A stretch of 30,411 bases of DNA, taken from a virus. Its lineage: Duplodnaviria; Heunggongvirae; Uroviricota; Caudoviricetes. The position numbers and the translations under genes were made by a program. The stretch lies in the IMG/VR virus record IMGVR_UViG_2562617133_000007. One strand, given 5' to 3'. Below, in pieces: positions 17,499 to 18,261 of this stretch. Each line of letters opens with the position of its first letter. Position 1 is the stretch's first letter. A model generated the notes under the pieces. It made no database searches. It was given only the letters and a program-made list of their open reading frames with translations, and was not told the origin of the DNA.

Positions 17499-17527
17499 TT
17501 ATCTTTTATGTATAAGATGGCTTTGTT
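17499..17527 (+). promoter_or_regulatory. Promoter-like motif (copy 1 of a recurring element)
   Basis: TTTACT-N17-TAAGAT; 27 nt match the copy at 21387-21413 with 3 mismatches. Confidence 0.3.
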
Positions 17528-18261
17528 TTCGTTGAGACGCGACTGTTTGAACTTAAATACAAGTGCAAACGAAGAAGTCTATCTGGCAGTAGCCTAATAA
17601 GCCAAACACCAGCGAGGTCAGTTTCCAGCCTCGTTACCGAAATGGGACACACTGAGCGAGTGTGATTGCAGAACGCAGGAGAGGGCATGATACGGCACCA
17701 CCCATGCCCTCTCCGATGAAGTAACAGAATGGGCGGTCGGTATATTTCCAACTCCATATCACTCCCGGATTCTTAGCCACTGACCGCCCATCCTGTTACG
17801 TCATTTTGTTCAATTATGTCGTTTATACTGGGTTAAAAAGCGGCGACGTAGCCCGGCTGGTATGGTTAGCCAGCACACAACGTTGAGGCCATTACATTTT
17901 TATCAATTCTAAGGTTCTATTCACAGAGATACTGGCGAACGTTGATATGTAACATGTTGGGCAAACATTCAATCGGGGTAGTGGCCTCAACGTTGTGAAG
18001 ACAGGATTGTTGTGTAGGTTTAACCACTGTTGCCATTGGTGCCTGTTTTCACAACAAATGATTCCATACACCGCATTATGTAAATTACAAAGTAGGTGCT
18101 GTCCTCAGAAACATCATCTACTTAAAGATTTTGCCTTCTATTGAGCGAAGTCGAAAACGTCTGGCACTAACGAAAAGTGCAAGTAGCGGTGCGTTTATTG
18201 GCAAAAACTAACACCGCCGCGATTGGCACTGCTGAGTAATAAATACTGGCAGTGCTGAATT

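Follow-up and report, generated by a model that had tools for sequence, protein, structure and literature searches.

A phage RNA family that resembles the message domain of tmRNA and carries a 5′ end complementary to host tmRNA

Introduction

Bacteria rescue their ribosomes mainly through the tmRNA–SmpB system, which determines whether truncated proteins are destroyed. Several phages are known to depend on it. In tmRNA, the nucleotides A−4 and U−5 set the frame in which the rescued ribosome resumes. Besides the one-piece form (SsrA, RF00023), two-piece (permuted) tmRNAs exist (RF01849–RF01851, RF04321); in their genes the acceptor piece lies just upstream, and the coding piece opens with the 5′ acceptor strand. 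Phages also encode base-pairing RNAs that target host non-coding RNAs, for example the anti-sRNAs AgvB and AsxR of EHEC prophages. An RNA that targets or re-templates tmRNA has, to our knowledge, not been described, and a search of the literature for phage RNAs of a tmRNA-like or anti-tmRNA kind gave no match.

The locus described here lies in a 30,411-nt stretch (the window), an SSU5-like phage-plasmid. Positions 17525–18261 of its plus strand are a non-coding RNA gene of ~737 nt. The first ~190 nt (17525–17714) belong to a conserved phage RNA family organised like the mRNA-like domain of tmRNA. This element shares with one-piece tmRNA a GCA resume codon that follows an A-rich leader with A at −4. 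It also shares a 10-codon tag of the ANDENYALAA kind, acidic or polar in its first half, hydrophobic and Ala-rich at its end and closed by one or more stop codons, and a helix over the stops that is followed by H-type pseudoknots. Unlike tmRNA, the phage RNA lacks the acceptor stem, G3-U70, the T-arm, CCA and pseudoknot 1. It is seemingly a primary transcript from GUUUUCG, and its first ~25 nt are antisense to the host tmRNA.

Other described RNAs are partial parallels. Like the permuted tmRNAs, the phage RNA carries a template that needs an acceptor-bearing partner RNA, with similar sequence around the resume codon (UAAAUGCAAACGAUAA). It differs from them in having a promoter and a protein gene upstream, in that its proposed partner would be the host's complete tmRNA, and in that the proposed contact would lie inside the host message region. 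The likeness to AgvB and AsxR is a single-stranded 5′ end complementary to a host RNA, encoded in a phage late or accessory region; here, however, tmRNA would be the target, and the phage RNA exceeds them in size by far, has a translatable-looking template and pseudoknots, and shows no evident Hfq module or terminator. GOLLD, ROOL and the T4 species 1 and 2 RNAs are likewise long, ornate non-coding RNAs adjoining phage tRNA genes; the tmRNA-like content sets the phage RNA apart from GOLLD and ROOL.

Results

The gap is a structured RNA gene on the plus strand

A sequence-only reading of the window had described a structured gap with no plus-strand open reading frame (ORF) of 60 aa or more, and the ORF listing bears this out for 17473–18261. 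No conserved ORF was found in the gap on either strand: the minus-strand ORFs (83, 59 and 74 aa) are absent from the relatives, and the 83-aa ORF, the sole minus-strand ORF scanned, has no match in Pfam. The inverted repeats of that reading were all recovered. The perfect 12-bp stem (GGAGAGGGCATG/CATGCCCTCTCC) appeared in an inverted-repeat scan. The second pair of arms, given as 18 nt (17721–17738/17783–17800), lies inside larger arms of 26 nt with 88% complementarity, and the T-rich run 3′ of it is TCATTTTGTTC. The third repeat has 20-nt arms with 95% complementarity, and a fourth (14 nt, 93%), which overlaps it, had been missed. Coordinates of all features are collected in Table 1.

Both strands of the gap fold better than dinucleotide shuffles. 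The plus-strand RNA has a minimum free energy of −258.2 kcal/mol against −200.3 ± 6.6 for the shuffles (z −8.7). The reverse strand reaches −242.6 (z −4.9), so that the plus strand is better by ~16 kcal/mol. The whole gap is kept in the SSU5-like group with compensatory changes in its stems, which identifies it as an RNA gene rather than a DNA site. Such changes were what the reading had proposed to look for in relatives. It had offered two options, a structured RNA and a DNA-level site. The first is strongly supported: the stems covary, the plus strand folds better, a sigma70-type promoter abuts the 5′ end and the RNA runs into tRNA genes on the same strand. The second found no support. The proposed Rfam check was run with cmscan on the window and its relatives; it returned tRNAs alone at the gathering score and placed the gap in no known structured-RNA family, GOLLD and ROOL included.

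Table 1. Features of the RNA gene and its surroundings (window coordinates)
Feature	Position	Strand	Sequence or basis
sigma70-type promoter	17490..17518	+	−35 TTTACT 17490–17495, 17-nt spacer, −10 TAAGAT 17513–17518
5′ antisense domain	17525..17548	+	complementarity to E. coli tmRNA
Linker upstream of resume codon	17549..17564	+	GAACUUAAAUACAAGU; A at −4 (17561) as in tmRNA
tmRNA-type tag template	17565..17600	+	GCA AAC GAA GAA GTC TAT CTG GCA GTA GCC TAA TAA
Helix enclosing stop codons, analogue of tmRNA helix 5	17583..17612	+	CUGG 17583–17586 with CCAG 17609–17612
Pseudoknot a, stem 1	17613..17647 (whole)	+	CGAGG 17613–17617 with CCUCG 17629–17633
Pseudoknot a, loop helix		+	UUCCA 17623–17627 with UGGGA 17643–17647; covariation
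Pseudoknot b, stem 1	17648..17676 (whole)	+	CACACU 17648–17653 with AGUGUG 17659–17664
Pseudoknot b, stem 2 (putative, by position)		+	GCG 17656–17658 with CGC 17674–17676; weak in the window's subfamily
12-bp hairpin (first stem of the reading)	17678..17714	+	arms 17678–17689 and 17703–17714; flanked by conserved GCAGG and CCGAUG
Long hairpin (second stem), then GUCAUUUU	17716..17804	+	arms 17716–17741 and 17779–17804; inverted-repeat scan and consensus fold
Small hairpin	17814..17851	+	UUAUGUCGUU 17814–17823 with GGCGACGUAG 17842–17851; RNAalifold consensus
Small hairpin	17856..17874	+	GCUGGU 17856–17861 with GCCAGC 17869–17874; RNAalifold consensus
Third hairpin and overlapping hairpin	17876..18055	+	17876–17895/17978–17997 and 17992–18005/18042–18055; compensatory changes
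3′ hairpins	18164..18258	+	GCACU/AGUGC 18164–18180; GCGG/CCGC 18186–18217; terminal 18223–18258
tRNA-Asn	18262–18336	+	inferred transcription unit
tRNA-Tyr	18342–18428	+	inferred transcription unit
tRNA-Thr	18433–18508	+	inferred transcription unit
Conserved spacer module, 294 nt	18509–18802	+	inferred transcription unit
tRNA-Ser	18803–18889	+	inferred transcription unit
Intrinsic terminator and T-run	19044–19063 (unit 18262..19070)	+	terminator scan; only plus-strand terminator nearby

The promoter matches the consensus at 8 of 12 positions, below the 9/12 threshold of the consensus scan, and was read directly from the sequence. All SSU5-like relatives retain its two hexamers at the same spacing, with a spacer of varying sequence. 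The same TTTACT-17-TAAGAT arrangement precedes one copy (L204) in an otherwise unrelated context, and Felix-like copies have TTGACA-17-TATAGT at an equal distance from GUUUUCG. Transcription probably starts at G17525. From this promoter the gap RNA and the four tRNAs appear to be co-transcribed to the terminator at ~19044, and the 3′ end of the RNA would be the RNase P site of tRNA-Asn (18261/18262).

A conserved family in Enterobacterales phages and plasmids

The family was found by pattern scans and a covariance model, R1, which the window matches at 95.4 bits (E 3e-18). It occurs in at least five Enterobacterales phage lineages, among them SSU5-like phages, Felixounavirus, HK620-like phages and Klebsiella siphophages. 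Copies lie in SSU5-like plasmids, in the tRNA arrays of Felixounavirus and Mooglevirus, in the late leader of HK620 between qut and tQ, in Klebsiella siphophages, and in prophages of Pantoea, Rouxiella and Pseudocitrobacter. Over 300 phage genomes carry the family, including Felix O1-like therapy candidates and HK620, as do 773 plasmid records, among them Y. pestis pMT1, pHCM2-type Salmonella plasmids, and Klebsiella and E. coli phage-plasmids. A scan of genome contigs returned only six true copies, all in Enterobacterales. The loose pattern scan gave mostly chance matches together with true marine permuted tmRNAs, which were kept as positive controls.

Rfam 15, ARAGORN and literature searches hold no record of the family. 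A literature search for interactome or expression data on this RNA found none, and the pMT1 copy of the locus (KIM coordinates about 76,640–77,110) is absent from two Y. pestis sRNA catalogues. The Y. pestis sRNAs sR082, sR083 (pMT1) and Ysr172 are other loci and were rejected as this RNA. The Y. pestis F1 capsule locus sits within this RNA gene.

A tmRNA-type tag template

Two features had escaped the reading: a tag template like that of tmRNA, and a segment at the 5′ end that is antisense to host tmRNA. The template reads ANEEVYLAVA, then two stop codons. Directly before GCA the relatives have AUAAAU or AUAACU. Across the family there are 14 tag peptides in 25 nucleotide versions, all of 10 codons, with the pattern A-N-[DE]-[DENT]-x-[YFMV]-[LM]-[AMV]-[VA]-A. 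Third positions change synonymously, and TAA, TGA and TAG stops interchange. The other two frames over the template vary in length in the family. Part of this regularity is by construction, because the retrieval patterns fixed GCAAACGA and the family filter demanded 10 codons; the 10-codon ORF is also present in all 40 members defined by the covariance model. Some of the conservation of codons 7–10 is explained by constraint on the RNA, since these codons overlap the helix.

The resume codon, short tag ORF and stop codons that make up the mRNA-like domain of a one-piece tmRNA are therefore all in place. No conserved in-frame start codon lies upstream of the resume codon in the family. An ATG- or GTG-initiated frame overlapping the resume codon was rejected, being variable in length and without a Shine–Dalgarno sequence. 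A second GCA...TAA string of 10 codons (18178–18210) was also set aside, as it is not kept in SSU5.

A tRNA-like domain was not found. ARAGORN called no tmRNA, and Rfam none at the gathering score. With ARAGORN relaxed to an 80% threshold, two "tmRNAs" appeared and were rejected; they borrow the 3′ halves of tRNA-Tyr and tRNA-Thr and add an arbitrary ORF. The tag stretch alone gave weak Rfam matches to beta_tmRNA (14–17 bits, gathering score 84) and tmRNA_permuted (14.7 bits, gathering score 47), which served as a lead and not as evidence of membership. The family covariance model run against tmRNA, like ARAGORN and Rfam, did not connect the two, and blastn of the element against 5,426 E. coli genomes did not reach ssrA. 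The relationship is visible by direct comparison only.

A helix over the stop codons and two pseudoknots

From the end of the template onward, the fold covaries across the family. The helix that encloses the stop codons is 99.4% paired, and one of its pairs changes from G-C to A-U in 8 sequences. In pseudoknot a, three of five pairs in stem 1 and all four pairs of the loop helix have changed on both sides, with the loop and its downstream partner reading CCAG/CUGG, CCGA/UCGG, CCAA/UUGG, GUCG/CGAC, CUAG/CUAG or CUCC/GGAG. Stem 1 of pseudoknot b is 99.5% paired and has 2 covarying pairs. Its stem 2 covaries in other lineages (GCCC/GGGC, GCCCAC/GUGGGC, GCCCUGA/UCAGGGC, AUCC/GGAU).

Over the family alignment, 91.3% of cells are paired against 33–47% for slid controls. 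Both aligners, MAFFT and cmalign, place a few rows of SSU5 type and the longer variants of stem 2 out of register, so that the figures for this alignment understate the pairing. For covariation the score is 0.372, with controls at or below 0.151. Both pseudoknot stems contribute to the 14 of 22 pairs that have changed on both sides. Set beside one-piece tmRNA, the phage element has two pseudoknots downstream of the template supported by covariation, and upstream only small hairpins.

A 5′ end complementary to host tmRNA

The most conserved part of the family is its 5′ end (~25 nt), which is antisense to tmRNA from just after pseudoknot 1. In the window, GUUUUCGUUG (17525–17534) pairs with nt 95–104 of E. 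coli tmRNA (CGACGAAAAC), and GCGACUGUUU (17539–17548) pairs with nt 82–91 (AAAUAGUCGC). Together the two segments cover ssrA nt 82–104 and span the host resume codon (nt 90). RNAduplex places the pairing with K-12 ssrA at nt 81–105 with −26.3 kcal/mol. Every lineage has 16–28 predicted base pairs with E. coli ssrA nt 70/85–107. Pairing falls on the conserved blocks, GUUUUCGU and GCGAC, and the variable linker stands opposite the internal loop. HK620-type copies pair further, into the 3′ strand of host pseudoknot 1 (CCGCAAA).

Against shuffled queries the RNAduplex energies are only modestly better (p about 0.005–0.3 per lineage), and against random targets the significance is likewise modest, since long targets give strong background duplexes. 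The shuffle test was replaced by a control that sets the host template against the RNA's own and by a comparison with the reverse complement of ssrA. For 39 of 39 representatives, host ssrA nt 70–107 is a better pairing partner of the 5′ domain than the equivalent region of the RNA itself, at mean energies of −26.9 and −13.6 kcal/mol, respectively. One copy (L137) matches the reverse complement of ssrA 74–107 in runs of 11, 3, 5 and 7 nt. The hosts of all copies share a near-identical tmRNA target, leaving no divergent tmRNAs in which phage–host covariation could be read.

The first 11 nt of the RNA are unpaired in the centroid fold. In silico, the element has the accessible segment and the extended, conserved complementarity to a target that mark a trans-acting antisense RNA. 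The full-length minimum free energy fold instead pairs the 5′ end with CGAAAAC at 18150–18156; this pairing was discarded because SSU5 lacks the sequence.

Hairpins of the 3′ part

The 12-bp hairpin that closes the ~190-nt element has changed 5 of 11 pairs on both sides. It reads GGAGGGAACAU/AUGUUCCCUCC in Cyrano, GGAUAGGGCAUG/CAUGCCCUAUUC in SSU5 and GACGGUGGC/GCCACCCGAC in another relative (L167). In HK620 and the Klebsiella phages its counterpart is the pair of stems flanking the element (CAGGUAAGAGCA...UGCUCUUUCCGAUGG). It is likely a stability element or, putatively, one that guides processing. Its 12 bp equal the length of a tRNA acceptor stem stacked on a T stem.

The remaining ~540 nt (17716–18261) are specific to the SSU5 lineage, and we take their conserved hairpins to serve stability or processing. 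The long hairpin is kept through changes of G-C to A-U and G-U (GGGCGG/CCGCCC to GGACGG/CCGUCC) and reads GAGAUGGGUGGCGG/CCGCCCAUCUC in L167. The terminator scan did not call this hairpin and its T-run a terminator because the loop is 37 nt, against a canonical loop of 3–8 nt on a short GC-rich stem. The two small hairpins that follow are invariant and so provide no covariation evidence; their U-G pairs are possible on the plus strand alone. Further on, GAGGCC/GGCCUC of the third hairpin becomes GAGACC/GGUCUC in Klebsiella and GAAGCC/GGCUUC in L079, and GAAGAC/GUUUUC in the same region becomes GGUCAC/GUGGCC in Klebsiella. The 3′ stems are replaced there by GGUG...CAC and GACACCG...CGGUGUC.

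Discussion

The best overall explanation, one we hold tentatively and with slightly less than even confidence, is that a tmRNA-like phage RNA docks with its 5′ end on host tmRNA and supplies a tag template in place of the host's. Transcription from its own promoter would make the RNA the leader of a tRNA operon, and its single-stranded 5′ end would dock on the host tmRNA. The duplex would mask the host resume codon. Beside host pseudoknot 1, the usual starting place of the host template, the phage strand would leave the duplex. Ribosomes rescued by host tmRNA–SmpB could then resume on the phage template and add ANEEVYLAVA, not ANDENYALAA. The phage would borrow the tRNA-like domain of the host and swap the template. 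A further effect of docking may be to expose the phage resume codon: in the free RNA, the predicted fold pairs it with those same 5′ nucleotides.

In its full form, with the phage RNA pairing beside pseudoknot 1, silencing the host template and imposing a phage-specified tag (a "template pirate"), the proposal is more doubtful. We know of no case in which a template is provided in trans through pairing within the message region of tmRNA. The ~24-bp duplex could just as well be cut by RNase III or act as a plain block. Stated more broadly, our best guess is that the RNA may dock on host tmRNA and then either substitute or block the tag template.

Inhibition as such is the strongest rival, and we consider it unlikely. 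Here the 5′ domain would mask host tmRNA or direct RNase III to it, shutting tagging down, and the body would be an untranslated decoy that baits the tmRNA partners SmpB, S1 or RNase R. The same complementarity to ssrA nt 70/85–107 fits this reading, as does the invasion of host pseudoknot 1 by HK620-type copies, and blocking is the simplest consequence of a duplex that covers the host resume codon. An inhibitor, however, needs no ORF of fixed length with interchangeable stops, tag-like residues and synonymous changes, and no resume-type leader with A at −4. Blocked ribosome rescue would presumably harm phage protein synthesis as well.

It is improbable that the element is the coding piece of a two-piece tmRNA that works independently of host tmRNA, with an acceptor piece of its own elsewhere in the phage or in adjacent mini tRNA-like modules. 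Some relatives (L005 at about 2630–2700, and L116) do carry, directly after the element, a module that has an acceptor-like stem of 7 bp, U8-A9 and a T-arm and lacks an anticodon arm, and GUUUUCGU resembles the tmRNA D-loop region GGAUUCGAC. These T-arm modules are sporadic, however, and have neither G3-U70 nor an encoded CCA. The window has no extra T-arm: a search of its 30 kb for the T-loop motif GGTTCNANNCC found none beyond those of the four tRNAs. Nor is there a 5′ acceptor strand, since the transcript seems to start at GUUUUCG. Permuted-tmRNA models score the window far below threshold (14.7 bits for RF04321, gathering score 47); the control loci L110 and L122, which are true permuted tmRNAs of phages, reach 89–103 bits on RF04321. 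The complementarity to host tmRNA would also go unexplained.

We give a similarly low probability to a passive leader or spacer of the tRNA operon, a decayed remnant of a captured tmRNA with degenerate tRNA-like hairpins that serves RNase P/E processing or stability alone. The element does always lie in or beside tRNA clusters or late leaders, its flanking stems resemble acceptor/T minihelices, and T4 tRNA clusters also hold stable RNAs of unknown function. Yet it is kept in at least five unrelated phage lineages with covarying pseudoknots, an intact 10-codon ORF and its own promoters, and its 5′ end tracks the host sequence rather than its own, which is not how remnants behave.

A DNA-level element built of inverted repeats (replication origin, pac/cos, packaging, recombination or attachment site), suggested by the several long repeats, the replication genes upstream and the integrase gene ~4 kb downstream, is extremely improbable, because protein-binding DNA sites do not preserve pairing rather than sequence, whereas these repeats change sequence yet keep pairing, with G-U pairs usable on the plus strand only; moreover, a search for iterons and direct repeats gave nothing but one chance 15-nt pair, there is no AT-rich block and no skew switch (GC 0.46 and flat skew across 17500–18500), and the 5′ module is shared by phages that replicate and package their DNA in quite different ways.

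Whether the RNA substitutes the host template or blocks it, ~740 nt that are blank in hundreds of records gain an annotation for a family that standard pipelines leave unannotated. If the RNA is only inhibitory, it would be a natural anti-tmRNA. A real template swap would mean that virus and host can combine in trans the two functions of tmRNA, tRNA-like and message, and the RNA would be a natural tool to re-tag rescued proteins. Should the phage indeed impose its own tag, this would be an RNA-level hijack of trans-translation, in which the fate of every rescued polypeptide would be altered during infection or plasmid-prophage carriage.

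A structured RNA conserved in SSU5-like elements

The window is an SSU5-like phage-plasmid. The region of its 737-nt gap upstream of tRNA-Asn matches plasmid MF554642.1 at 100% identity and the E. coli phages Cyrano and CMS-2020a at ~94%. Cyrano and SSU5 carry the same gap, without annotation, between tRNA-Asn and the last of the small ORFs that follow the DNA ligase gene. The sequence-only reading had described here three inverted repeats and no plus-strand ORF of 60 aa or more. An inverted-repeat scan recovered all three repeats in place, plus a fourth overlapping the third, and the gap indeed holds no such ORF. 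Minus-strand ORFs are not kept in relatives, and the only one scanned (83 aa) has no Pfam match. Folding both strands, a check proposed earlier, gave -258.2 kcal/mol for the RNA against -200.3 ± 6.6 for dinucleotide shuffles (z = -8.7), and -242.6 kcal/mol for the complementary strand (z = -4.9).

The 737 nt align end to end in SSU5-like elements of E. coli, Salmonella (SSU5), Enterobacter, and Klebsiella, and are shortened in Yersinia pMT1 (caf locus) and a Citrobacter plasmid (Tn3). In Y. pestis KIM pMT1, caf1R (at 1419 of locus L231) and the F1 capsule locus replace everything beyond the third hairpin; in the Citrobacter plasmid (L232), a Tn3 transposase breaks the RNA gene at a similar position. 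SSU5-like relatives keep TTTACT and TAAGAT/TATGAT as promoter hexamers, 17 nt apart, with a spacer sequence that varies.

Aligning relatives, as had been suggested, revealed compensatory changes in the stems of the gap. The 12-bp stem reads GGAGAGGGCAUG/CAUGCCCUCUCC in the window, GGAGGGAACAU/AUGUUCCCUCC in Cyrano, and GGAUAGGGCAUG/CAUGCCCUAUUC in SSU5. In the third hairpin, GAGGCC/GGCCUC gives way to GAGACC/GGUCUC in Klebsiella and to GAAGCC/GGCUUC in relative locus L079; in the fourth, GAAGAC/GUUUUC is replaced by GGUCAC/GUGGCC. L167, more distantly related, retains the first ~350 nt with entirely different stem sequences. On these alignments, the changes are the signature of plus-strand RNA structure, not of protein-binding DNA sites. 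Of the two possibilities raised earlier, a structured RNA or a DNA-level site, the first is thus borne out by stem compensation on the plus strand. The second, a DNA site, found no backing: the gap has no direct repeats, AT-rich block, or skew change.

A scan found no further plus-strand promoter-like site between the gap promoter and the nearest plus-strand terminator. The promoter, the 737-nt RNA, three tRNAs, a spacer module, tRNA-Ser, and the terminator therefore likely form one transcription unit.

Features of the window and of compared loci
Feature	Location	Strand	Remark
96-aa ORF	17182-17472	+	its stop is the upstream border of the gap
RNA gene (gap)	17525-18261	+	
Segment with wider relatives	~17521-17667		
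Tag ORF	17565-17600	+	
Conserved hairpins	17716-18258	+	partly covarying, specific to SSU5-like elements
tRNA-Asn	from 18262	+	downstream border of the gap
tRNA-Tyr, tRNA-Thr		+	follow tRNA-Asn in this order
Spacer module	18509-18802	+	294 nt, tRNA-Thr to tRNA-Ser
Inverted repeat opening spacer	18507-18525 with 18589-18607		
tRNA-Ser(UGA)	18803-18889	+	
Terminator	19044-19063	+	
442-aa ORF	19989-21317	-	between tRNA operon and glutaredoxin and integrase genes
SSU5 tag (L002)	6084-6116		corresponds to window 17565-17597
Flanking modules, L005	~2630-2700		CAGGUAAGAGCA...UGCUCUUUCCG
Flanking module, L116		-	after the element
Flanking modules, HK620 (L004)	2375-2455, 2628-2722		CAGGUAAGAGCA...UGCUCUUUCCG
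Bracketed element, L211	~3120-3390		
Truncated RNA gene, pMT1 (L231)	901-1407		intact to window ~17999

The 96-aa ORF is named 'C-type natriuretic protein' in SSU5 (SSU5_048) and many plasmid records; since it has no Pfam match, this seems to be an annotation error copied from record to record. The 442-aa ORF has no Pfam domain and a GC content of 0.29-0.34 against ~0.45 around it, and looks like recently acquired cargo. ARAGORN calls tRNA-Ser(UGA) as Ser; the Rfam tRNA model does not report it at the gathering score, and it scores 44.8 bits on the tRNA-Sec model, just below threshold. Its variable arm holds GCAAACGAUGAUG, whose likeness to the tag start of other family members is coincidental. 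The spacer module is conserved. Phage P1 has a ~82% identical region, annotated upl/plp, and the module's motif GUGGUGAAUGCRCAGGCUGAUG...CCGGAGAUCAGCRCCGGCCA recurs in the HK620 late leader and in Klebsiella phage Carvaje. What is annotated in P1 as the ORF 'upl' may instead be an RNA element.

A tmRNA-message-like family

By blastn, only ~17521-17667 of the gap has relatives beyond SSU5-like elements. These lie in unannotated DNA of Felixounavirus and Mooglevirus tRNA arrays, HK620/HK633, and Klebsiella siphophages. In HK620 the copy lies within the late leader, with qut on one side and tQ on the other; in Mijalis it stands between two tRNAs behind a TTGACA-17-TATAGT promoter, and in Carvaje upstream of tRNA-Ser. 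Searching IMG/VR and one genome per species with sequence patterns brought in more lineages, as well as prophages of Pantoea, Rouxiella, Pseudocitrobacter, and Escherichia. Twenty-nine representatives went into a covariance model, which matched 40 members among the collected loci. It scores the window at 95.4 bits (E = 3e-18) and gives no match to the E. coli ssrA gene or to two genuine permuted tmRNAs from phages.

The family has seven parts. A 5′ segment (i) consists of invariant GUUUUCG(U), a variable linker of ~2-9 nt, GCGAC (GCGUC in Felix-like phages), and UUUGCGG or UGUUU. One or two small hairpins and an A-rich leader (AUAAAU; ACAAGU in the window) with A at -4 (ii) precede a 10-codon ORF and stop (iii), and a helix closes over the stops (iv). 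In pseudoknot a (v) a hairpin loop pairs downstream, as CCAG/CUGG, CCGA/UCGG, CCAA/UUGG, GUCG/CGAC, CUAG/CUAG, or CUCC/GGAG, and as UUCCA/UGGGA in the window. Pseudoknot b (vi) pairs CGCAC/GUGUG, CGUAC/GUAUG, CGCAU/AUGUG, or CAGACU/AGUCUG, with a second stem of GCCC/GGGC and longer variants. The last part (vii) is a closing hairpin with conserved flanks. In the model-based alignment 91.3% of cells are paired, against 33-47% with slid partners, the covariation score is 0.372 against at most 0.151, and 14 of 22 pairs change on both sides; some rows are mis-registered, making these figures conservative.

In the window the ORF reads GCA AAC GAA GAA GTC TAT CTG GCA GTA GCC TAA TAA, giving ANEEVYLAVA and two stops, very similar to the E. 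coli tmRNA tag ANDENYALAA. Among 143 copies, retrieved with patterns that fixed the first 8 nt of the ORF, there are 14 peptides in 25 nucleotide versions, all matching A-N-[DE]-[DENT]-x-[YFMV]-[LM]-[AMV]-[VA]-A. The family filter demanded 10 codons, with which all 40 model-defined members comply anyway. Synonymous changes occur (GAC/GAT, GTC/GTG/GTT/GTA, TAT/TAC, all four GCN), the stop is TAA, TGA, or TAG, indels fall in the flanks and never within the ORF, and the other two frames vary in length. Going by these substitutions, the ORF has the behavior of a template being read, with the caveat that a helix overlaps codons 7-10.

Among SSU5-like subgroups, E. coli elements have ANEEVYLAVA, Klebsiella elements ANDNQYLAVA, and the Salmonella/Enterobacter/Citrobacter/Yersinia subgroup ANEDTYLAVA. 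The Salmonella host tag, ANDETYALAA, also has Thr at position 5, which may be coincidence.

Individual copies vary in setting. In the ANDDLMMVAA lineage (L118, L224, L226) the element directly follows a terminator-like hairpin with a U-run (GCCCAUCUUCGGGUGGGCGUUUUUUU), unlike promoter-fronted copies. In L211 (tag ANDDLMLAAA) a different hairpin unit, CAUAACUCGAG-stem-CUCUAUGGUAUGUUUA, stands on either side of the element; the stems of its two copies show compensatory differences, and the units may be processing sites of the RNase III type. In L003 (KY654690.2) annotated tRNA coordinates are offset by ~58 nt (tRNA-Arg annotated at 2789-2865, found by Rfam at 2731-2804).

In other lineages, counterparts of the 12-bp hairpin, with the frame CAGGUAAGAGCA...UGCUCUUUCCG, occur as repeated modules on the flanks of the element. 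Some enclose a T-arm (e.g. AUGGGUUCGAGUCCCAU) with a 7-bp acceptor-like stem and U8-A9, and have no anticodon arm, G3-U70, or CCA; they look like mini tRNA-like elements. Twelve base pairs is the length of an acceptor stem and a T stem stacked together, and we take the hairpin and its counterparts to be processing or stability modules.

No tRNA-like domain, and a 5′ segment complementary to host tmRNA

At normal thresholds neither ARAGORN nor Rfam finds a tmRNA in the window; the Rfam check proposed for the gap returned 14.7 bits, over the tag only, against 89-103 bits for genuine permuted tmRNAs of phages scanned alongside. Good promoters in three independent contexts (window/SSU5-like; Felix-like; L204 and Pantoea) put the predicted start at, or a few bases upstream of, GUUUUCG, where a 5′ acceptor strand would not fit. 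Outside the four tRNAs, the 30-kb window has no T-loop motif.

The 5′ segment was compared with E. coli K-12 ssrA, whose resume codon is at nt 90. In the window, GUUUUCGUUG is computed to pair with nt 95-104 and GCGACUGUUU with nt 82-91 (-26.3 kcal/mol). HK620-type copies add UUUGCGG with CCGCAAA (nt 75-81), and L137 reads UAGUUUUCGUCAGAGUUGGCGACUUUGCGG where the reverse complement of ssrA 74-107 is GUAGUUUUCGUCGUUUGCGACUAUUUUUUGCGGC. All 39 representatives pair with ssrA 70/85-107 (15-28 bp, mean -26.9 kcal/mol), and much more weakly with the corresponding part of their own RNA (mean -13.6). Phage templates diverge from the host at exactly the paired positions, with GAA GAA or GAU GAU against GAC GAA AAC and a leader of AUAAAU or ACAAGU against AUAGUC. 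The conserved blocks of the segment are the paired ones, and its first 11 nt are unpaired in the centroid fold. Pairing energies against shuffles alone are of modest significance. This complementarity makes the 5′ segment antisense to the host's tmRNA.

Felix-like phage papers state 'no tmRNA'. Rfam 15 has no family for this RNA, PGAP and the depositors left the RNA locus unannotated, and full-text literature searches found no phage tmRNA-like RNA, RNA antisense to tmRNA, or RNA at the gap locus. Within these resources the family is undescribed.

A possible replacement template

The antisense segment could make the RNA a plain inhibitor of host tmRNA, or the RNA could be a decoy, a reading that sets aside the tag ORF. 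Alternatively, the RNA could be the coding piece of a pair whose acceptor piece is undiscovered. An inert operon leader would account for the place before the tRNAs, and leaves the conserved reading frame aside. Most simply, an RNA that lacks an acceptor end, has a template that looks functional, and could dock beside pseudoknot 1 would be a replacement template borrowing the host tRNA-like domain; two-piece tmRNAs show that template and acceptor can sit on separate RNAs. Because the phage strand is antiparallel to tmRNA, it would exit the duplex at the end beside host pseudoknot 1, where the host single-stranded leader and resume codon would begin. In the free RNA, a predicted pairing joins the 5′ UGUUUG to CAAACG at the RNA's own resume codon. 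Since the same nucleotides would pair with the host, docking of this replacement template could, more speculatively, also unmask the phage resume codon.
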